Below, piece after piece: positions 35 to 62,677 of a stretch of DNA of 64,000 nt. The first letter of the stretch is position 1. Each line of letters opens with the position of its first letter. A program made the position numbers and the translations under genes. The DNA is from Patescibacteria group bacterium (GTDB lineage: Bacteria > Patescibacteriota > Microgenomatia > UBA8517): contig JALHYA010000017.1 of the NCBI GenBank assembly GCA_022868165.1, positions 11,634 through 75,633 of the forward strand, written 5' to 3'. Under the pieces are notes generated by a model. The model was not told where the DNA came from, made no database searches, and was given only the letters and a program-made list of their open reading frames with translations.

Positions 35-1012
35 TCAATCCTTAAGCTCCCCTAGGTATTTGATGGCATCCATGGCCGCCATGCAGCCGAAGCCGGCTGC
101 CGTTACTGCTTGTTTATATTGATAGTCGTGCACATCTCCCGAAACAAATACGCCCTGCACGTTGGTTGCGGTTTTGTATCCGCCAATTTTCTCGTCCCAA
201 AATCTTTTGACATAACCTTTCTCGTCAAGCTCGATCTTTCCTCCAAAGATTTGTGTTGAAGGAACGTGTCCTATTGCTACAAAAAGTCCGTCGACAGGAA
301 ATTCGCTAGTTGAATTGTCATAATTGCTCTTGAGCTTCAATTTTTCCAATTTCTGCTCACCAATCACTTCTGTCACTTCCGTGTTCCATAAAATTTTAAT
401 CTTGGGATTTTCCTTCACTTTCTGCTGCATTGCGGCGCTAGCCCTAAATTCATCGCGCCTGTGGATAATCGTTACTTCAGTCGCGTATTTTGTAAGTGTC
501 ACTGCCTCTTCCATTGCCGAATCCCCTCCTCCAACAACAACCACTTTTTTATCTTTGAAGAAGGCCGCGTCGCAAGGGGCGCAAGAAGAAACCCCGCGAC
601 CGATAAGCTTTTTGAGTCCCGGAACATCCAACCATTTTGTCTCCGCACCTGTAGCAATAATTATTGATTTTCCCAGATAAACCTTTCCCGCTGCTATAAC
701 TTCAAAAGGTTTTTTGGAAAAATCAACGTCGGTTGCATTTTCCCCAAGAAATTCCGCCCCAAAACGCTCGGCCTGAGCCCGCATCTCCCCCATTAACTTG
801 GGTCCCAAAATTCCCTGAGGAAAACCGGGAAAGTTATCAACTGTTGTGGTCAGCATAAGCTGGCCTCCCCAGACTTCTCCGCCGATAATTAGCGTTGAAG
901 CGGCTCCTCTGGTTGTATAAATTGCGGAAGTAAGCGCTGCAGGACCCGAGCCTATGATTATTACATCCCAAGACTCGCCTTGTTGCGGCTTTTTTGCGAA
1001 GGTTTCTTTCAT
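35..1012 (-). CDS. trxB: thioredoxin-disulfide reductase
   Basis: GSGPAALTSAIY FAD-binding motif and a second GGGDSAMEEA NAD(P)-binding motif. The redox-active disulfide is CAPCDA; the canonical TrxB motif is CATC. Confidence 0.9.
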   Translation of the reverse strand: MKETFAKKPQQGESWDVIIIGSGPAALTSAIYTTRGAASTLIIGGEVWGGQLMLTTTVDNFPGFPQGILGPKLMGEMRAQAERFGAEFLGENATDVDFSKKPFEVIAAGKVYLGKSIIIATGAETKWLDVPGLKKLIGRGVSSCAPCDAAFFKDKKVVVVGGGDSAMEEAVTLTKYATEVTIIHRRDEFRASAAMQQKVKENPKIKILWNTEVTEVIGEQKLEKLKLKSNYDNSTSEFPVDGLFVAIGHVPSTQIFGGKIELDEKGYVKRFWDEKIGGYKTATNVQGVFVSGDVHDYQYKQAVTAAGFGCMAAMDAIKYLGELKD

Positions 1013-1020
1013 GAACCTAT

Positions 1021-1263
1021 TTAAACTGTTCCCCCTGTACCACCAGTAGCTGGCGGTTCATTCACGGGTACTTGAGGCTCAGGAGCTCCTGCGGGAGGCG
1101 GTGTTGGTTCGCCAGGCGCCGGCGTAGGTTCCGGTGTTGTCGGTACTATTGGTTCCGGTGCCGGAGGCGGCGTTACTGGCGGCTCTGCCGGAGTAGGCAT
1201 GGGAGCCGGTGTGCCCATAGGCTGCGGCTGATCTGTTGGATTAGTCGGTTGTGTTGGTTCCAT
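1021..1263 (-). CDS. Pro/Thr-rich low-complexity hypothetical protein (80 aa)
   Basis: Stop-to-stop ORF packed exactly between trxA stop (1264) and trxB start (1012) on the same strand. Composition is extreme (P,T,E,A). No homology recognisable. Confidence 0.3.
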   Translation of the reverse strand: MEPTQPTNPTDQPQPMGTPAPMPTPAEPPVTPPPAPEPIVPTTPEPTPAPGEPTPPPAGAPEPQVPVNEPPATGGTGGTV

Positions 1264-1602
1264 TCAAATCACCCCCTTTTTAATCAAATCTTCGAATGCT
1301 TGTTTTCCTGCAAATCCTACCTGCCTTCCCAACTCTTTTCCCTCTTTAAAAAGAATTGTTGTGGGAATGGACATAACGCCGAATTTTGTTGCCGTATTGG
1401 GATTCGCATCAACATCTAATTTTGCGATTCCCACTTTGTCATTATACTCACCGGATAGTTCTTCCAAAACCGGCTCGGCCATTTTGCACGGACCGCACCA
1501 TGAAGCCCAAAAATCAACCAAAACTGGAGTCTTTTTCTGAATAACCTTTGTCTCGAAATCCGAATCCGTTATATTAAATGTCGTCATGATTTGTCGTTTC
1601 AA
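1264..1602 (-). CDS. trxA: thioredoxin
   Basis: WCGPC active site, about 110 aa, thioredoxin fold sequence pattern. Confidence 0.9.
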   Translation of the reverse strand: MKRQIMTTFNITDSDFETKVIQKKTPVLVDFWASWCGPCKMAEPVLEELSGEYNDKVGIAKLDVDANPNTATKFGVMSIPTTILFKEGKELGRQVGFAGKQAFEDLIKKGVI

Positions 1603-1638
1603 TATACAGACTTAATATAGTTTAAGTCAACACTCTTT

Positions 1639-3723
1639 TCACAAACGCGTTCGCCTAAGGGTCAGTGCGTTGGCTACGACGATAAGCGATGAGGCACTCA
1701 TTAGGATGGCGCCGTATTCGGGGCGAAGCATTATACCCCAGGGGATAAATACTCCAGCTGCAGCCGGAATCGCCAATACGTTATATCCTGTTGCCCAAGC
1801 AAGATTTTGCTTCATCTTAGCATCTGTTTTTCGACTTAGAGCGATTACTTTGACAACATCCAGAGGGTTATTTTTTACTAATACTACTTCTGCGGACTCA
1901 ATGGCGACATCCGTTCCCGCTCCTATTGCGATACCAACATGGGCCTGCGTTAGACTTGGGGCATCGTTTACTCCATCCCCCACCATGCCGACGGTGTGGC
2001 CCATTGATTGAAGTTCTTTTACTTTATTTACCTTATCTTCTGGCAAAACCTCCGCAAAAACGGTATCTATTCCCAATCGTTCCCCCATCTCTTCTGCAAT
2101 CTCCTTTTTATCCCCCGTAAGCATCGCAATCTTTAATCCCATCCCATGAAGTCTATCAATTGCCTTTTTAGACTCCGGACGAACCTCATCTTCCAAAGTG
2201 ATATTGCCGATAAATTTTCCATCCTTCGTTACGGAAATATCTCTTCCTCCAACTTCTATCTTTGATTTTCCGACCATGCCTTCTATTCCCTTGCCTGGAT
2301 ACGATTTAAAATTTCTGACTTTTGGTATATCAATTCCTTTTTCCTTGGCTGCCATGACGATTGCCTTCGCAATCGGGTGCTGAGAATATATCTCAACCGC
2401 CGCGGCCAATCGCAAACACCCTTTGTTTGAAAACTTTGTTACTGCAAAATTTCCCGTTGTTAGCGTTCCGGTTTTGTCAAAAATTATGTAGTCCAGCTTT
2501 CTTGCAATTTCCAATCCCGCCATGTCGCGAATCAAAATCCCATTTCTGGCCGCCACAGCCGAAGTAATCGTTGTAACCGTCGGAATTGCCAATCCCAATG
2601 CGTGGGGACAGGTTATAACAATGACGGTGATGGCCAACGTTACTGCAAAAATCGCTCCGTGGGGATTGATAAAGAACCAATAAATAAAAGTTCCCGAGCC
2701 GACAACTATTGCGACAATTGTGAGTGCGTTTGCGGCTTTATCCGCAAGCTTTTGCACCGACGGCCTTGTTTCTTGAGCTTGACGAATAAGCTCCATTATT
2801 TGGGAGATAGCTGTTTCGCTTCCTGTTTTGGTTACTTTGACAGTCAAGGAGCCGTCATTATTAATAGTTCCGCCGATAACTTTATCGCCATTTTTCTTCC
2901 CTACGGGGCGGGATTCGCCGGTTATCATCCCCTCGTTTACCGAAGACTCTCCGTCTGTTACTACCCCATCGATAGGTATTTTCTCTCCGGGCCTTACCAG
3001 AACAGAATCCCCTACTTTGATTTCCCCGGTCGGGATGTCAACAACATCGCGACCGGACAATTTATGTGCCGCCGGAGGGATTAATTTAGCAAGTTCTCCG
3101 AGAGCATTGCCGGTCCCCAAAACAGCGCGCATCTCCATCCAATGCCCGAAAAGAAATGCCAAAACCAAAGTTGAAATTTCCCACCACAGCGATTCTCCCG
3201 TAAATAAAAATGTTGCGGCAACGGAAAAGAAATATCCCGAAATTACAGCGAGAGAAACCAGCGTCATCATGCCATAATTCTTGTTTCTTAATTCAACCAG
3301 CGCTTCTTTAAAGAATGGCCATCCGCCATAGAGGAAAATTATTGTTACAAGAAAAAATAATGATACATTATGATATGGAAGCGTCTTTTGAAATCCCAAC
3401 CATTGTTGGATTTTTGGAGAAAGAGCTAAAACGAGAATCGTTAGGGGCAGGGCAACAAAAAATCTTCTCTTAAAATCTTCCGCCATCATTGCGTGATGGT
3501 TCTCGTGACCCTTATGCTCCCCCACTTCTACAAGTGACATCCCGCATTTGGGACAAAAACCAGAAGCATCCTGTTTTACTTCAGGATGCATTGGACAAAG
3601 ATATTTATGTTCCACAGCTTCCTCCGCCCACAGCGTTTTGAGGAAGCGGACCAACTTTCTTTGCAATACCAGAGGCTCCAGTGCCTGAAGAAAAATCTTT
3701 TCCCAGCATCTCTTTTGCGTCAA
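1639..3723 (-). CDS. copB: heavy-metal (copper) translocating P1B-type ATPase, CPH-motif (CopB-like)
   Basis: DKTGTLT phosphorylation site, GDGVNDAP hinge, TM6 motif CPH ([12 protein letters not shown]), N-terminal CPMHPE...CPKCGM metal-binding module. Likely true start is an internal GTG near 3615, because the ORF overlaps the upstream gene by 119 bp. Confidence 0.9.
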
Positions 3724-4504
3724 CCTTATCCCAATCCAGATTCCTTGCGGTCTTCATGTAATAAGCATTTGTGATGTAAGTCTGGGAGAACCAAAAGGAA
3801 TTAAGCTCCAAAATATACTTGTAGATATCGTTTTCCGGAACGCCTTTTGAGACCAAAAGTTCAATCGCCGCCAAGGCTGCCATTCCGTGATTGCAGTCCG
3901 GAAACCAAGTGGGATTATCACAACAGGGTCTGTAAACCCCCTTGGCAATTCTGGCTACTTCATCCTGTTGCTCGACCGTGAGAGAAATCAAATCAAATTT
4001 ATTAAGATAATTTACTGCGTCCGACTTTGCCAAAGTCCAGCCTCCGGTTGAAGCAAAATTTCCTACCTCGGCCTTATAATCTGTGCCCAATGGTCCTTGG
4101 TCATAAACAATTGATTTTTGGGCAAGGCCCAAAGCCCAAAGAAAATCAACCACAAACTGGGAATTGGCAGCATCGATTTTTAGATTGTCGGATGAGCCTT
4201 CGGTTAATATCTTTCTTTGCTCCTCGGTCAGTTTAACGGCCTTTTCAAATTGGGCCATATCAATCACCCCGGCAGCAACGAGTTTGGGGCCGTAGTCGCC
4301 CCAGGAAACCGGCAAGGTAAAACCCTCTTTAGGAACAACTTTAGAGGAAATTTCGGCAATTGTTGCCAGTGCTTTAGCATCGCTCTTTGCTTTAACAATT
4401 ACTTGATACTTTTCTCTAAAAGTATTCATGTTCATTCCCAGGAGCAATCCCCCTACTCCCAAAACCAGGAAAGCGATTAGTATCAAAATATTTTTTCTAT
4501 TCAT
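3605..4504 (-). CDS. hypothetical exported protein with Cys/His cluster ([14 protein letters not shown])
   Basis: N-terminal signal/TM segment. 4-bp overlap with the upstream gene and overlap with the copB start. No recognisable family. Confidence 0.5.
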
Positions 4505-5067
4505 GCGAAGTTAAGCAATATAAACAAGATTATTGATGCTAGTAATATGCTTCCGAGGCTGAAAAATATCCTTTGATAAGGGAAGTAAACTTTTCCGTTT
4601 CTTTTAATAAGAAAGTTGTCCAAAATATCGACAAGATAAAAAATTGCTCCGCCCAAAACCAGTCCGAAGGTTAATCTATCCAACCCCATTATTTTGCTTA
4701 GATGGGTATTAATTAGGAAAAATTTCAGATTTAGAACCGCCCAGTTGTTAAAAGCATAAAAAGACCATATGGTTAACCCAAAAATCACAACGTAAATGGC
4801 AGGCTTTATAAACTTCCGGATTTGCCCGGAAATTTTGGCGTCGTATTTCCGAAGAATGAATGTGCCAAACCAAAAGGCTATCGCCCCCAAAAATGCCGCC
4901 ATCCAAAGACCTGTTATTGCATCATCAACTCCCAAAAATCTGGCAACGGAAAGCCCTACTACCGCTCCCCCGACACACAACGGACAATGGGCGGAAACCA
5001 CCGGGGGCAATATCAAATAGACACCTGGCAATAGAAGCAAAATTGTGATCTTTAAGGAATTTTTCAT
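4501..5067 (-). CDS. membrane protein with N-terminal CPxC motif (paralog of 5924-6442)
   Basis: Signal-like N-terminus then AHCPLCVGGAVVGLSVARFLGVDD. Multi-TM. Shares CPxC, GLxxxRxLGVDD and FxQRxxF motifs with the ORF at 5924-6442. Confidence 0.6.
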   Translation of the reverse strand: MKNSLKITILLLLPGVYLILPPVVSAHCPLCVGGAVVGLSVARFLGVDDAITGLWMAAFLGAIAFWFGTFILRKYDAKISGQIRKFIKPAIYVVIFGLTIWSFYAFNNWAVLNLKFFLINTHLSKIMGLDRLTFGLVLGGAIFYLVDILDNFLIKRNGKVYFPYQRIFFSLGSILLASIILFILLNFA

Positions 5068-5567
5068 TGGACCACATCCCCATTGAAGGTCAGTTCTTTC
5101 ATCCCACCGTCAAAATAAAGCCAAACGCTTCTCTGAACCTGTCCCAAACCTGCCAAACCATGGGCAGCCGGATCGAACCTTACGGTAACTTTGACAGTTT
5201 CGCCGTTTTTAACTGCCAAACTAAGGGTTGGGTTCGCCACACCGCTCATTTCCATTCCATAAAACGAAGATCCTTTCCCGCCGATGGTAACCGATGCTGT
5301 GGTACACATGCAGGATGTGGTGATTTTAAAAAGCTTAATATCCTTACCGGAAGCATTTTTTATCTCATACTCTTTGGTAACCAATCCCCCAGAATAAGGT
5401 ACGTTGCCCAAATCGTAATTTTGAGGATTTGACTCAATACCCTCGACCGGATTTGTAGAAATTGCAGCCTCGGTTTTTTGTTTTGTCGTAACTAAAAAGG
5501 TTAATCCGACAACCAACAAAATTGTTACAATAAAGGCTCCAATAATAAATTTACTTTCTCTGCTCAT
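5064..5567 (-). CDS. DUF1573-like domain protein (N-terminal TM anchor)
   Basis: TTSCMCTTASVTIGG resembles the DUF1573 SCGCT core. C-terminal pattern VKVTVRFDP...SVWLYFDGG. Member of the copper operon. Confidence 0.55.
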   Translation of the reverse strand: MSRESKFIIGAFIVTILLVVGLTFLVTTKQKTEAAISTNPVEGIESNPQNYDLGNVPYSGGLVTKEYEIKNASGKDIKLFKITTSCMCTTASVTIGGKGSSFYGMEMSGVANPTLSLAVKNGETVKVTVRFDPAAHGLAGLGQVQRSVWLYFDGGMKELTFNGDVVQ

Positions 5568-5833
5568 TTGCTTTTGCTAAATACTTCCACTATTTCTTTG
5601 ACTATTTTCTCTTTTTCGCCGGCTGGTTCGTGGATATCGTGAAGGACACAGGAGTGAAGATGGCCATGAAGAATAATTTCATCAACCTTTTTAAGAGCAG
5701 CCTGAACTGCCTGCGATTGATGTATAACATCTAAACAGTACGCATCTTCATCAAACATCTTGCGTACCCTTTTCAGATGCCCCTCGGCAATTGCCAACCT
5801 TCTTAATGTTTGTCTCTTAACGGAAGCGTCCAT
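5564..5833 (-). CDS. csoR: CsoR/RcnR-family metal-sensing transcriptional repressor
   Basis: 89 aa. Conserved YCLDVIHQSQAVQAAL and HLHSC motifs give the C-H-C copper ligand set. First gene of the overlapping operon. Confidence 0.85.
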   Translation of the reverse strand: MDASVKRQTLRRLAIAEGHLKRVRKMFDEDAYCLDVIHQSQAVQAALKKVDEIILHGHLHSCVLHDIHEPAGEKEKIVKEIVEVFSKSK

Positions 5834-5842
5834 ATGAAGTAG

Positions 5843-5861
5843 TATCCCCCCGGGGGGGATA
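5843..5861. promoter_or_regulatory. candidate CsoR operator: perfect GC-tract palindrome TATCCCCCC/GGGGGGGATA
   Basis: Read directly: tat-C6-G7-ata, centred between the divergent csoR and CPxC-paralog starts. Resembles known CsoR operators (AT-flanked C/G-tract inverted repeats). Confidence 0.6.
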
Positions 5862-5923
5862 TGCTGTCAAGAAGGTATTTTGTCCGTTGCGCCGAGATAG
5901 ACTTTTCCCATAGAATTCAATGT

Positions 5924-6442
5924 ATGAAGAAATTTCTAAAAGTCCTTTCTGTTTTTTCCCTATACTCTGTCCTCTCTATACTCTTCCCTTCTGTTACCTA
6001 CGCCGTCTGCCCCGTTTGCACAGTCGCAGTCGTGGCCGGGTTAGGACTTTCTAGGTGGTTGGGTGTTGACGATACCGTTTCGGGAATATGGATAGGCGGC
6101 GTCATTCTTTCTACCTCTTTCTTGTTTGCGAGCTGGCTAAAAAAGAAAAACATAACATTTCCGTACTTAACCGTTATTTCGGCCGCGATTATGTATGCTA
6201 TTGTTCTTCTTCCCTTACAGTTTGCCAAAATAATCGGTCATCCGTTGAATACCCTCTGGGGCGTTGATAAGCTAATTTTAGGCACCTTAATTGGTTCGGT
6301 CGTCTTTCTGACGGCGGTTTTTGCCGATAGAAAGGTCAGGGAAATCAAAGGAAAACAGCTTTTTATCTTCCAGAGAGTCATTTTTCCTGTTGGCGCACTT
6401 GCAATTATGTCTTTGGTGTTTTACTTTGTAACCAGACACTAA
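5924..6442 (+). CDS. membrane protein with N-terminal CPxC motif (paralog of 4501-5067)
   Basis: Start placed at MKKFLKV (signal-like). The list ORF begins at 5861, inside the palindrome. VCPVCTVAVVAGLGLSRWLGVDD motif. Transcribed divergently from csoR. Confidence 0.6.
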   Translation: MKKFLKVLSVFSLYSVLSILFPSVTYAVCPVCTVAVVAGLGLSRWLGVDDTVSGIWIGGVILSTSFLFASWLKKKNITFPYLTVISAAIMYAIVLLPLQFAKIIGHPLNTLWGVDKLILGTLIGSVVFLTAVFADRKVREIKGKQLFIFQRVIFPVGALAIMSLVFYFVTRH

Positions 6443-6443
6443 T

Positions 6444-6983
6444 ATGGCAGATAAAGCTGACGTAAAAAAACTATTGGATAAGGTCGAATCCGTCACGAAG
6501 GAGAAAAAACTCGACCTCTCCTCCGACGAAGACCTCTCTATAGGAATAATGAACCTCATTTCAATTGAGGAGCACCTTTTCTTCACTTCTCAAAAAACCG
6601 GCAAACAAATGTATCTGGATCTACTTAATGAGGTTCGGCTGATGCGAACCGAACTCATGAGAAAAATCATCAAGGACTACGAAGGAGAGGTCTGGTGCAT
6701 AAGCAAGCATTTACTTGCGGCTTCGATGAGAATGATGGAAGTCGGCACCAAAGAACTTAAAAAGGGCAATAAAAACGAGGCTTGGGAATTATTCGATAAA
6801 GGATACAAGCTCTATTCGATGTTCTGGGGCATCAATCTTGGAGTAATCAAGATGGACAGCATCAAAAGAGGAGATACAGAGGTTAACTTGGTAGACGAAA
6901 AATTTAACCTCAAGGGCAAGGTTTCCCTTTGGGATAAGCTTGGAGTAATTGTCAAAAAAGCCATCGACTGCTGCAAAGAATAA
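6444..6983 (+). CDS. hypothetical protein (179 aa)
   Basis: Starts 1 nt after the CPxC paralog stop, so likely co-transcribed. No recognisable motif. Confidence 0.45.
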   Translation: MADKADVKKLLDKVESVTKEKKLDLSSDEDLSIGIMNLISIEEHLFFTSQKTGKQMYLDLLNEVRLMRTELMRKIIKDYEGEVWCISKHLLAASMRMMEVGTKELKKGNKNEAWELFDKGYKLYSMFWGINLGVIKMDSIKRGDTEVNLVDEKFNLKGKVSLWDKLGVIVKKAIDCCKE

Positions 6984-7005
6984 ATCTCCAAGGACAGGGA
7001 CTGCC

Positions 7006-7557
7006 CTATTCTACTGGGGTCAAAAGAAATAGATGAATAAATACTGTTTCTTCCTTATAAAAAATCGTTTCCTCCCCAAGGGTTAACGAAATATCTTCTC
7101 TACGGTCCAAAACTCTGTAGGCATATCTCCATTCTCCATTGTCCCCATCGGTCTCGGTGGGCATACAGGTTCTATCAAGTCTAGTCATGCCTCCCAGCCC
7201 TCTGATTTTCCATTTAAGGTAACCGGCTACATCTTTCTTTGTAATCCCCAGTTTTTCAAGTTGTTCCGCTGGGGCTACTCCTCCCGCATAAAGCCGAGTG
7301 AATTTTTTGCCATCTACCTCGACTACTTCCTGGCCACCACCGGTAATCTGAGCCAACCACTCATCATGATATACTCCCTCGGCCCCTTCATAATGGCTTG
7401 ATTCAAAGGAAAACCCTCCGCGGTCAACGGGTGTTCTAAGGTTGCGACCTGCATAACCAGAAGTTAGCCCTCTGGTCAAAATTTCTTTAATTTCTTTACT
7501 TATCACGACACCCGTAATATAGCACTCCGTTATGGTTAAAACAATTTTGTCCGCCAC
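7006..7557 (-). CDS. hypothetical protein (183 aa)
   Basis: Long ORF with protein-like composition. No family recognised. Confidence 0.45.
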   Translation of the reverse strand: MADKIVLTITECYITGVVISKEIKEILTRGLTSGYAGRNLRTPVDRGGFSFESSHYEGAEGVYHDEWLAQITGGGQEVVEVDGKKFTRLYAGGVAPAEQLEKLGITKKDVAGYLKWKIRGLGGMTRLDRTCMPTETDGDNGEWRYAYRVLDRREDISLTLGEETIFYKEETVFIHLFLLTPVE

Positions 7558-16593: not shown

Positions 16594-17079
16594 ATGAAAG
16601 ATAGGCTTACAGAAACTCCTTTGCCTTGGCACGAAGTAAATGCCCAACAATTTGTGGCTGACATTCGGGAAGAACTTATGGCAGACTTTCGGGACATACA
16701 AATAGATTTCTACGATTGGTCCCAATTAAGGCGCAGGAATTTGGAAGGCATTAGTAAAAAAGCCAGGCAAAAAGGAGACGAAAATTTGGCTACTGTATTT
16801 GAAAAGTTGGCCCAGGAAGCAAAAGAGGAGCAATCTTCTTCGGTACTAATTGAAATCGTGGGTAACAGCCGAGTAAGAATAAACGAGGCCTTATTTTCGT
16901 TATCAGAAATCGCCAAAAGAAATTTTGGAGTTTTGGACACCGAAAAAAGCAAGTCTCTCTATGTAAACCCGCCATATAAAGCCCTCAAAGAGGCCGGAAT
17001 AGGAGAAATCTTGGCGCCACGCTGGAAGTGCGAAATGGCTTATAAATTCACGGAAGAGAAATCTTCTCGAGCTTCTTAA
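16594..17079 (+). CDS. hypothetical protein (161 aa), leaderless start
   Basis: TATAAT at 16582-16587 lies 6 nt upstream of ATG. No family recognised. Confidence 0.45.
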   Translation: MKDRLTETPLPWHEVNAQQFVADIREELMADFRDIQIDFYDWSQLRRRNLEGISKKARQKGDENLATVFEKLAQEAKEEQSSSVLIEIVGNSRVRINEALFSLSEIAKRNFGVLDTEKSKSLYVNPPYKALKEAGIGEILAPRWKCEMAYKFTEEKSSRAS

Positions 17080-18974: not shown

Positions 18975-19544
18975 TTACCAGATGGCTTCCTTTCTAACTC
19001 CAAAATACTTCCTCTGAAAAAGAGGAAAGCCTTTTTCTTTTAACCTTCTCGGCCAGTATATATGAAGCAGGATCTCGCGTATTTCTGAAGCAAGAAGAAG
19101 AAAAAGGAATATCCCAAACGGAAGTTGTATCCCCAAAAGAGGAAAAATAAACCACCACAAAAACGAGGCTTCAATAAAATTGGGAAAAAAGACAAATACG
19201 CTCTGTTTCTTCAAGTAAAGGAAGAGTCCCTGGCCGATTAGTCTGTAAAGAATAGGAATCAAAATCAGAATAAAGTTTTCGCTTTTGATGCTTACTATGA
19301 ATATGGATATATAACCCAGCCAATCTTGATATTTGTCAAAAACCTGGTAGGTCGGCCGCGGCATATCCACCAATCCTTCTACTTGTTCGAAAAGATATCC
19401 ATCCCAAAAGTCGAAGAATAAATACAAGAAAAATCCCCAAACCGGATTAAACAGAATATAGATTGCTGAGGCGATTCTAAGACATAGCGAGACCAATACA
19501 ACCGGGTTGCCGAGATAATCTCTTATTCTGTATGATTTCCTCAT
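18975..19544 (-). CDS. hypothetical membrane protein
   Basis: Several TM segments and a DFWDG motif. Confidence 0.45.
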   Translation of the reverse strand: MRKSYRIRDYLGNPVVLVSLCLRIASAIYILFNPVWGFFLYLFFDFWDGYLFEQVEGLVDMPRPTYQVFDKYQDWLGYISIFIVSIKSENFILILIPILYRLIGQGLFLYLKKQSVFVFFPNFIEASFLWWFIFPLLGIQLPFGIFLFLLLASEIREILLHIYWPRRLKEKGFPLFQRKYFGVRKEAIW

Positions 19545-30595: not shown

Positions 30596-31144
30596 TCATT
30601 TTAACACCTTTGGGGGCCACGAAGTTTCGGCAGTTTTCTCCCTGGAGTTTGCTTCTCTCGCCAACATGAAGAGGAGGTCACTTAGGCGGTTAAGAAAAAC
30701 CAAAACCGAGGGATTCACTTTTTCCTCTTTCGAAAGCGTAACCACCATTCTCTCTGCCCTTCTTGACACAGACCGCGCCAGATGAAAATTTGCGGACAAA
30801 ATGCTTCCTCCCGGAAGAATAAAATGTCCCAAAACCGGAAGTTTTCCCTCCAAATAATCAATTTTCTTCTCCAGATATTTCACTTTTGAGGCCGAAAATC
30901 TTTTGTTGGCTCCCGCCAAAATTGCTCCGATTGTAAATAGGTCGCTCTGGATTTTTTGAATAAACTTTTTGCCGGAGCCGTCTTTTTCCAAAGAAGCGCA
31001 AATTCCCAAAACGCTATTAAGTTCATCGATGGAGCCGATTGAATGGACTGTCAAAGAGTCTTTTGAAATGCGGATTTTTTGAGAAGACTCTTTGTCGTAA
31101 AGAGAAGTTTCACCTTTATCCCCCCTCCTGGTATAAATAGCCAT
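30596..31144 (-). CDS. ATP:cob(I)alamin adenosyltransferase, PduO-type
   Basis: N-terminal MAIYTRRGDKGETSL signature of PduO/MMAB family. Confidence 0.8.
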   Translation of the reverse strand: MAIYTRRGDKGETSLYDKESSQKIRISKDSLTVHSIGSIDELNSVLGICASLEKDGSGKKFIQKIQSDLFTIGAILAGANKRFSASKVKYLEKKIDYLEGKLPVLGHFILPGGSILSANFHLARSVSRRAERMVVTLSKEEKVNPSVLVFLNRLSDLLFMLAREANSREKTAETSWPPKVLK

Positions 31145-62053: not shown

Positions 62054-62677
62054 TTACTTTTTAATCCCCTTGATTGTTTCCCATTTCTCTCTTGGACATT
62101 TCCTTGGCCAAGTTCTCCAGGCTTCCTTGTCTCTATACTGAGGAAACTCACCATCTTCTACCCAATGAAGTTTATTATCATCTTTTATGTGAGTTACAAA
62201 CTCTTTTCCGTTTAAGTGGTCAATCTCATGTTGAAAAATCCTGGCAACATAACCTGTATACTTTTCTTCAACTTTTTCTCCATCTTTTGTATATGCTTTT
62301 ATCTCGATAGATTTTGGTCTTGAAACAATGCCACAAACCCTATCTGTAGAAAAACAACCTTCATACCATTTTTCTTTTGTTTTTGATTTCCAAACAATTT
62401 CTGGATTTATAAAAACTCTCAGGTCTGAAACTTTTCCATGCCCGTCAGCGCCAACATCAACCAGAATTATTCTTTTTTGAATTTTAACTTGAGGAGCAGC
62501 AAGCCCAACTAAAACTGGCTTTTTTCTGTCACTCTGCTCTGGATACGCAAATTTAAGCATTTTCTCAATTATCTTTTGGGTCTTGGATGAAGTAATTTCT
62601 TTAACAGAGATTTTTTTAGCAGTCTTAACTAAAATTGGGTCATTTGGATAAGCGAAGCCTTTTCTGTGGACCGCCAT
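62054..62677 (-). CDS. def: peptide deformylase (leaderless start)
   Basis: GLAAPQV, EGCFS and QHEIDH motifs. Minus-strand TATAAT at 62684-62689 lies 6 nt upstream of ATG. Confidence 0.9.
   Translation of the reverse strand: MAVHRKGFAYPNDPILVKTAKKISVKEITSSKTQKIIEKMLKFAYPEQSDRKKPVLVGLAAPQVKIQKRIILVDVGADGHGKVSDLRVFINPEIVWKSKTKEKWYEGCFSTDRVCGIVSRPKSIEIKAYTKDGEKVEEKYTGYVARIFQHEIDHLNGKEFVTHIKDDNKLHWVEDGEFPQYRDKEAWRTWPRKCPREKWETIKGIKK

Follow-up and report, generated by a model that had tools for sequence, protein, structure and literature searches.

The csoR locus and the palindrome in its intergenic gap

We analysed a stretch of 64,000 nucleotides (nt) from a Patescibacteria group bacterium, hereafter the window, with a focus on a 19-base-pair (bp) palindrome at 5843-5861 that lies directly in front of csoR, a gene encoding a CsoR-family repressor of the Cu(I)-sensing type. 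To judge by the names that protein homologues carry, this uncultured bacterium belongs to the Woesebacteria/Microgenomates branch of the Patescibacteria (Candidate Phyla Radiation). The csoR gene (5564..5833, minus strand; 89 amino acids, aa) opens a minus-strand operon with the order csoR-DUF1573-CPxC_A-P299-copA, whose first three junctions each overlap by 4 nt, and a second operon, CPxC_B-P179, is read divergently on the plus strand. The palindrome sits within the 90-nt gap between csoR and the divergent gene for the CPVC membrane protein CPxC_B, with nine bases (5834-5842) between it and the csoR ATG at 5833. This agrees with an earlier note on the same DNA, which had placed it about 10 bp upstream of the csoR start and between the csoR operon and a divergent CPxC gene. 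By sequence and by analogy with characterised CsoR proteins, we assign the palindrome, very probably, as the CsoR operator, set within the promoter of a csoR-...-copA operon that would be autoregulated and is probably leaderless.

The palindrome (hereafter the CsoR box, 5843..5861, with no strand of its own) reads TAT-C6-G7-ATA, letter for letter the tat-CCCCCC-GGGGGGG-ata reported in the earlier note. Its two 9-nt arms, TATCCCCCC and GGGGGGATA, are fully complementary and flank a single central G, forming a perfect 9+1+9 inverted repeat, and it matches the family consensus TATCCC-N7-GGGATA at 12/12 positions. When both strands of the window were searched for the 19-mer with up to three mismatches, the only match was the palindrome itself, so the element is unique in the window; none of 100 dinucleotide-preserving shuffles contained a match. 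With a G+C content of 43.5%, the window has G or C homopolymers of at least six bases at only nine places, and two of these adjoin to form the palindrome. Two candidates for a second CsoR box were considered and rejected: one at 31117-31135 (TATCCCCCCTCCTGGTATA, one mismatch to the box pattern), which lies within coding sequence, at the N-terminus MAIYTRRGDKGET of the open reading frame (ORF) 30596-31144 on the minus strand, and one at 19128 with two mismatches. Both were judged to be chance occurrences because about 2.4 such matches are expected by chance.

csoR encodes a CsoR with copper ligands

The csoR product matches PF02583 (Trns_repr_metal) over residues 6-86 with 76.8 bits against a cutoff of 22.8 (E=1.8e-21). 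Among proteins of solved structure, it is closest to CsoR from T. thermophilus (3AAI), M. tuberculosis (2HH7) and Geobacillus (4M1P). Alignment to 2HH7 places the ligands C33/H58/C62 on C36/H61/C65 of the M. tuberculosis protein and E80 on its E81, and across 26 homologues the residues Y32, C33, H58, C62 and E80 are invariant. The product shows the x-C-H-C ligand fingerprint, and its N-terminus, MDASV, contains no histidine, unlike that of RcnR/InrS. In CsoR, a second-shell pair, Tyr35/Glu81 in M. tuberculosis numbering, couples Cu(I) binding to DNA release; this pair is present here as well, with Y32 preceding C33 and E80 as the equivalent of E81. Judging from the ligand alignment to 2HH7 together with the residues invariant in the 26 homologues, the csoR product is a copper-type (x-C-H-C) CsoR. 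No second CsoR paralogue was found in the 64-kb window.

The palindrome occupies the spacer of the csoR promoter

A promoter scan with a threshold of 9/12 returned a single promoter-like site in 5500-6100, namely TTGACA-18-GATACT on the csoR strand, with a 10/12 match and an 18-nt spacer. Its −35 hexamer TTGACA lies at 5865..5870 and its −10 hexamer GATACT at 5841..5846, both on the minus strand. Across 1000-7200 this is the joint-best sigma70-like site (10/12), tied with one at 1630-1601. The box starts 3 nt past the −35 hexamer, occupies the spacer and supplies, through its csoR-proximal arm, the first four bases of the −10 hexamer. Between the end of this hexamer and the ATG there are 7 nt. 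Because of this distance, we infer that the csoR transcript is probably leaderless. A leaderless csoR mRNA would fit this genome, since −10 hexamers close to the ATG are common and Shine-Dalgarno (SD) motifs are rare: SD-like motifs seldom occur upstream of the 59 long ORFs of the window, and in front of many first-in-operon genes a TATAAT, TACAAT, TAAAAT, TATACT or TAGAAT ends 5-7 nt before the ATG. These promoters provide sequence-level evidence for sigma70-type TTGACA/TAnnnT promoters with leaderless starts in these organisms.

Leaderless-looking starts are widespread in the window. They were seen at 16594(+), 37509(+), 43813(−), 9914(−), 15368(−), 59327(−) and 59751(+), and further at 62677(−), 40877(+), 5924(+) and 5833(−).

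The position of the palindrome also bears on whether it could be a structural nucleic-acid element (a hairpin, terminator, cruciform or riboregulator) or a product of chance or of assembly. A 9-bp G/C stem could form in principle. Lying upstream of both predicted transcription starts, however, the palindrome is unlikely to be transcribed; its centre is a single nucleotide, no T-tract accompanies it, no terminator was called at it, the intergenic region folds no better than its shuffles (z = −0.21), and no Rfam match was obtained. An assembly artefact is excluded by the conservation of the box in independent assemblies, described below. We therefore regard this explanation as scarcely credible.

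The box is conserved in front of csoR operons

An alignment-seeded scan with one genome per GTDB species yielded 39 csoR loci, 38 from Patescibacteria and one from a Firmicute (L039). The box was scored on 12 positions and counted when at least 10/12 agreed within 130 nt upstream of csoR. By this measure 34 of the 39 species-level loci have a box, TATCCC(C)-N-(G)GGGGATA in form, ahead of csoR. Two further loci, in which csoR is not the first gene, carry the box at the start of the operon instead: in L013 (1376-1394) it is upstream of the DUF1573 gene and next to a divergent CPxC_B-P179 pair, and in L028 (508-526) it is upstream of copA. In another locus (L014), the box position is masked by Ns. 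The earlier note had named absence of the palindrome from orthologous csoR promoters as the finding that would speak against an operator; with 34 of 39 loci carrying it and two more having it at the operon start, the opposite is observed.

The enrichment is confined to this position. The strict pattern TATCCC-N7-GGGATA with up to two mismatches occurs within about 150 nt before csoR in 28 of the 39 loci, compared with about 0.2 expected, while the rest of the loci (about 290 kb) contains 10 sites against 9.0 in first-order Markov simulations, which is chance level. A matrix built from 29 sites reads T-A-T-C-C-C-C-n-n-n-G-G-G-G-G-G-A-T-A, with seven invariant positions. Close relatives of the window (L040-L043), whose CsoR is 83-92% identical, retain TTGACA, the box and the −10 hexamer, and only the centre of the box varies among them (C7G6, C6G7, C5TG7). 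No other candidate palindrome was found to be conserved upstream of csoR. The 19-bp consensus TATCCCC-N5-GGGGATA is thereby usable for annotating CsoR regulons across Microgenomates and Woesebacteria.

Two promoter layouts were recognised. In the first, seen in the window, in 10 Patescibacteria loci and in L040-L043, the box begins 0-3 nt past TTGACA and is followed by TAGGAT, TAGGGT or GATACT, with the ATG 6-9 nt further on. L026 and the Firmicute L039 share this spacer position and have a longer leader with an SD motif. Altogether TTGACA stands 0-3 nt ahead of the box in 13 loci of the species-level scan as well as in the close relatives L040-L043. In the second layout, the box lies 20-39 nt past TTGACA and overlaps the −10 hexamer or the transcription start site. 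Either layout would let a protein on the box block RNA polymerase.

With C and G runs exactly in the promoter spacer, and with run lengths that vary among relatives (C5-C8, G6-G8), the element could also be viewed as a slippage-prone, phase-variable homopolymer spacer that alters the distance between −35 and −10 and hence promoter strength. Several observations argue against this view. Runs of 6-7 bases are short for efficient slippage; the 13-bp core is retained in all sites of the 19-nt geometry, and the spacer stays constant at 17-18 nt. Moreover, many orthologous boxes break the runs (for example CCCC-ATG-GGGGGG) and yet keep the dyad symmetry, which points to recognition by a protein. Slippage is thus a highly improbable explanation.

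A paralogue in one species shows a comparable arrangement. Locus L005 contains a second CsoR-family gene (7194-7483) whose product shows about 40% identity and x-C-H-H ligands, located directly upstream of a second P1B ATPase gene. It has a classical box of its own, TATACCCCAGAGGGGTGTA, in the spacer of TTGACA-17-TAGGGT, 9 nt before its ATG. To judge from these sequences, this pair shows that box and regulator travel together.

Database csoR entries of 102-109 aa (P0002, P0005, P0007, P0020) are over-extended at their N-termini (L041:1501-1539 and L044:1501-1560). Their extra residues (LTEYPPGGDTIPN...) are translated promoter and operator, YPPGGD corresponding to TAT CCC CCC GGG GGG GAT.

Weighing the operator assignment and a proposed mechanism

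The identification of the palindrome as a CsoR operator, as the earlier note had proposed, finds strong support in four lines of evidence: a Cu(I)-type CsoR encoded next to it, its overlap with the core promoter, its type-2 architecture and the presence of the box in 34 of 39 orthologous loci.

Several points weigh against it. For S. lividans CsoR, a TAC-X9-GTA dyad in the DNA and an RLXR motif (R54/R57) in the protein are essential (PMC3902906). The window box and most of its relatives have TCC/GGA in place of TAC/GTA, and the fourth residue of RLXR is Ile, not Arg, in the csoR product, so the details of recognition must differ. The −10 hexamer GATACT matches the consensus at only 4/6 positions, and the leaderless start is deduced from the −10/ATG spacing alone. 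One locus (L018), as well as the degenerate L002, is without a clean box. Finally, function has been assigned by analogy throughout for the CsoR of Patescibacteria.

Regarding the protein motif, helix alpha1 of the csoR product reads R12-L13-A14-I15 instead of RLXR. Among the Patescibacteria homologues, the first Arg of the motif is invariant, while the fourth residue is mostly Ile and in a few cases Arg. The CsoR proteins of M. tuberculosis (RLKT) and T. thermophilus (RLLS) also have no fourth Arg, and because they share this lack, its absence here does not exclude membership of the CsoR group. We also looked for co-variation of the fourth RLXR residue with the type of box half-site and discarded the idea, as no clean pattern emerged; RLAR and RLAI proteins both use TATCCC boxes. 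Regarding the dyad, three loci (L006, L020 and L023) do have TAC...GTA, but 13 bp apart.

The absence of the TAC/GTA dyad of characterised boxes would also be consistent with the palindrome being the site of another DNA-binding protein, or a mere G/C-rich spacer element, with CsoR binding elsewhere. Against this, the motif accompanies csoR operons specifically and keeps to the start of the operon where csoR is not the first gene (L013, L028), its geometry is that of known CsoR boxes, and the L005 paralogue has its own classical box at the same promoter position. With no other conserved candidate palindrome upstream of csoR to which the protein might bind, we consider another occupant of the site very improbable and retain CsoR as the protein that would bind the box.

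By analogy with characterised CsoR proteins, the switch may operate as follows. At low copper, apo-CsoR would bind the box (TATCCCCCC-G-GGGGGGATA, 19 bp), with a probable stoichiometry of two tetramers per site. Because the box fills the spacer and the first four bases of the −10 hexamer, bound CsoR would cover the 18-nt spacer and these four bases, and RNA polymerase would be excluded. Upon binding of Cu(I) to C33/H58/C62, the affinity for DNA would fall and the promoter would fire. The expected product is a five-gene, probably leaderless mRNA (csoR, the DUF1573 protein, CPxC_A, P299 and copA) with its 5' end at, or within 1-2 nt of, the csoR ATG. The CPxC_B-P179 operon would most likely be transcribed from its own promoter outside the box and would not necessarily be repressed through it.

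Genes of the csoR operon

The gene after csoR encodes a 167-aa DUF1573-domain protein (5064..5567, minus strand) with a membrane anchor at the N-terminus; its start and the csoR stop share 4 nt. It matches PF07610 (E=4.9e-11), and a DUF1573 gene comes after csoR in 24 of the 39 species-level loci. It is followed by CPxC_A (4501..5067, minus strand), a 188-aa membrane protein with conserved synteny and with CPLC at the start of its first mature helix. CPxC_A matches no Pfam family, and its sole NCBIfam match is spurious and below threshold. Next comes P299 (3605..4504, minus strand), an uncharacterised protein of 299 aa with a signal anchor and a cysteine motif (CC-x-C), for which neither a Pfam or NCBIfam family nor a relative in the PDB was found. 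Its position between CPxC_A and copA is conserved across loci.

The operon ends with copA (1639..3615, minus strand), a P1B-type copper-translocating ATPase with an N-terminal HMBD, which matches E1-E2_ATPase, Hydrolase and HMBD and reaches 581 bits on TIGR01511 (cutoff 397). Its linkage to csoR is kept in 33 of the 39 loci, the genetic linkage expected for a CsoR. The copA start is probably the GTG at 3615; GGAGGA (3625-3620) stands ahead of it, and the two genes overlap at the end of P299. The reading frame is open to 3723 (TTG 3723), and starting at the first ATG (3591) would truncate the HMBD. The GGAGGA ahead of copA is a clear SD motif; the survey upstream of the 59 ORFs, which found few SD-like motifs, left that site unscored.

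The divergent operon

The first gene of the divergent operon encodes CPxC_B (5924..6442, plus strand), a 172-aa membrane protein in which a signal peptide and a CPVC motif are accompanied by five more helices. An ATG at 5861, the first one in frame, would make the gene overlap the box; it was ruled out as the start: a public protein that is 100% identical has 172 aa, and the homologues share the signal-peptide start. CPxC_B has 649 homologues, all hypothetical. Its AlphaFold2 model is confident, with a predicted local distance difference test score (pLDDT) of 85.7, and contains six helices; no structural or sequence relative was found in the PDB. CPxC_A and CPxC_B are paralogous, with about 25% identity; in both, the first mature helix opens with an invariant C-P-x-C, and R44 and D49-D50 are conserved. 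The CPxC family seems to be confined to Patescibacteria.

The second gene encodes P179 (6444..6983, plus strand), a cytoplasmic, helical protein of 179 aa. Its family comprises at least 8000 clusters at 90%, the best 120 matches listed are all more than 70% identical, and it is strongly conserved in Patescibacteria. The invariant residues include E43, H44, W84, C85, K88, H89, C176 and C177, the last two forming a C-terminal CC. P179 matches no Pfam family and has no relative in the PDB, and its structure model is weak. In 16 loci it is linked to csoR, often divergently, and in one species (L016) it lies within the csoR operon. Elsewhere (L046), it stands beside genes for thioredoxin, thioredoxin reductase and HSP70.

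The composition of the divergent operon varies between species. A membrane-anchored thioredoxin (Trx)-like CPHC protein occurs in L001, L008, L011 and L023, and a CcdA/DsbD-like membrane protein with GGISCxAVQGG, hereafter CcdA-like, in L002, L006, L015, L020, L021 and L024. The company that these Trx-like and CcdA-like partners keep with CPxC_B and P179 suggests a thiol-disulfide function for the divergent side. The analysis flags three conserved protein families of unknown function as copper-handling candidates.

Does the box also control the divergent genes?

For the divergent operon, the best plus-strand promoter candidate (5887..5916) consists of TTGCGC (5887-5892), an 18-nt spacer and TAGAAT (5911-5916). 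It is a weak candidate (8/12, under the 9/12 threshold of the scan) and does not overlap the box. From TAGAAT to the ATG at 5924 there are 7 nt, again the pattern of a putatively leaderless transcript. Between the box and its −35 lie 25 bp, and relative to the plus-strand start the centre of the box would be at about −72. The TTGCGC and TAGAAT elements are also found in L040 and L041, relatives too similar to be decisive.

The earlier note had placed both divergent transcripts under copper control. Such a bidirectional operator, with one box repressing the csoR operon and the CPxC_B-P179 operon alike and both responding to copper, could work through an extended or wrapped CsoR-DNA complex or through two RNA polymerases that compete back to back. 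In its favour, csoR and a P179-containing operon are separated by a short common intergenic region (about 50-140 nt) in at least 12 species and in L048, and divergent P179 operons recur with or without CPxC_B, the Trx-like CPHC protein or the CcdA-like protein. In L015, the csoR promoter and box take up almost all of an intergenic region of just 47-53 nt, so that any P179 promoter there must overlap them. The presence of P179 inside the csoR operon of L016 points in the same direction. Experimental precedents exist as well. In E. coli rcnR-rcnA, a box of the CsoR family controls a divergon. In the B. liaoningense csoR-cueA divergon the −10 elements overlap, the box lies in the overlap and both promoters are demonstrably repressed (PMC5057107).

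The window box, in contrast, is not placed as in B. liaoningense, the plus-strand promoter being 25 bp away from it. No second box was found in the intergenic region, nor near the divergent promoter in the two loci with long intergenic regions (L008, L011). P179 operons located apart from csoR (L045, L046 and L047) are without a box in all three cases, and two loci (L043, L044) retain promoter and box without any divergent gene. Given the distance of the plus-strand promoter from the box and the boxless remote P179/CPxC operons, the claim that both transcripts are under copper control is not supported. Conservation of the divergon, and the location of P179 within the csoR operon of one species, leave room for co-regulation; we rate a bidirectional operator as rather unlikely.

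A broader proposal would make the box the control point of the whole conserved divergon, with the CPxC pair, P299, the DUF1573 protein and P179 (with its EH, CxxxH and CC motifs) under Cu(I)-CsoR control, joined in other species by the Trx-like and CcdA-like partners. We consider this doubtful. If true, it would amount to a new copper-handling or thiol-protection module in ultra-small bacteria, with leaderless transcripts and an operator that is itself the promoter spacer.

Comparison with known CsoR and RcnR systems

The literature that we searched makes no mention of CsoR in bacteria of the Candidate Phyla Radiation. The present analysis offers a well-supported cis-regulatory assignment for this group, in which transcription factors and promoters are almost unstudied.

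The window box is close to the type-2 CsoR sites, in which two G/C tracts, 2-4 bases apart, are enclosed by AT-rich inverted repeats and to which two tetramers bind (PMC3902906). This definition bears out the description in the earlier note of known CsoR operators as AT-flanked inverted repeats of G/C tracts. As in the type-2 boxes of S. lividans, B. subtilis, L. monocytogenes, S. aureus, C. glutamicum and B. liaoningense, dyad G/C tracts and outer AT-rich repeats are present here. Compared with the B. liaoningense box TATACCCnnnnnGGGTATA and the C. glutamicum box ATACCCCnnnGGGGTAT (PMC5057107), the window box is identical at 12 of the 14 specified positions in each case, and it has the same 19-bp length as the former. 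The sole differing positions are 4 and 16, which are C:G here and A:T in the type-2 boxes; TAC-X9-GTA therefore becomes TCC-X9-GGA, and the G/C core measures 13 bp rather than the typical 11. A wider geometry for the Patescibacteria box was considered and dropped, because the 19-bp box of B. liaoningense is equally long and positions 4 and 16 alone have changed.

The spacing of the tracts differs from the type-2 description, too. Instead of 2-4 bases between the tracts and about 11 bp between the AT repeats, the tracts of the window box adjoin (0-1 base), and TAT and ATA stand 13 bp apart. In most orthologous boxes the tracts are 2-4 bases apart, as in TATCCCC-ATG-GGGGGGATA, but the core is again 13 bp long.

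Type-1 operators of the RcnR type have just one tract, of 3-8 G (or C) bases, and their AT-rich repeats lie 6-9 bp apart (PMC3902906). In contrast to such sites (TACT-G6-N-AGTA), the window box has a C-run followed by a G-run and 13 bp between its flanks, and the regulator carries the x-C-H-C copper signature where RcnR has H-C-H-H.

At the level of the locus, the window shares with B. liaoningense csoR-cueA and E. coli rcnR-rcnA a CsoR-family gene and a divergent gene that have one short intergenic region and a single box in common. It differs from csoR-cueA in that the divergent promoter candidate lies 25 bp outside the box and the divergent genes encode unknown proteins, not an ATPase. As in type-2 systems, the box overlaps the core promoter of the csoR/copA operon, and csoR would likewise be autoregulated; the particular feature here is its position in the −35/−10 spacer of a probably leaderless promoter. 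On the protein side, R-L-A-I stands in place of the RLXR of S. lividans CsoR. For models of operator recognition, the pair thus represents a natural variant, with TCC/GGA for the 'essential' TAC/GTA dyad and RLAI for RLXR. Set beside the known systems, this is an ordinary CsoR switch in an unusual lineage, with a natural variant of the dyad.

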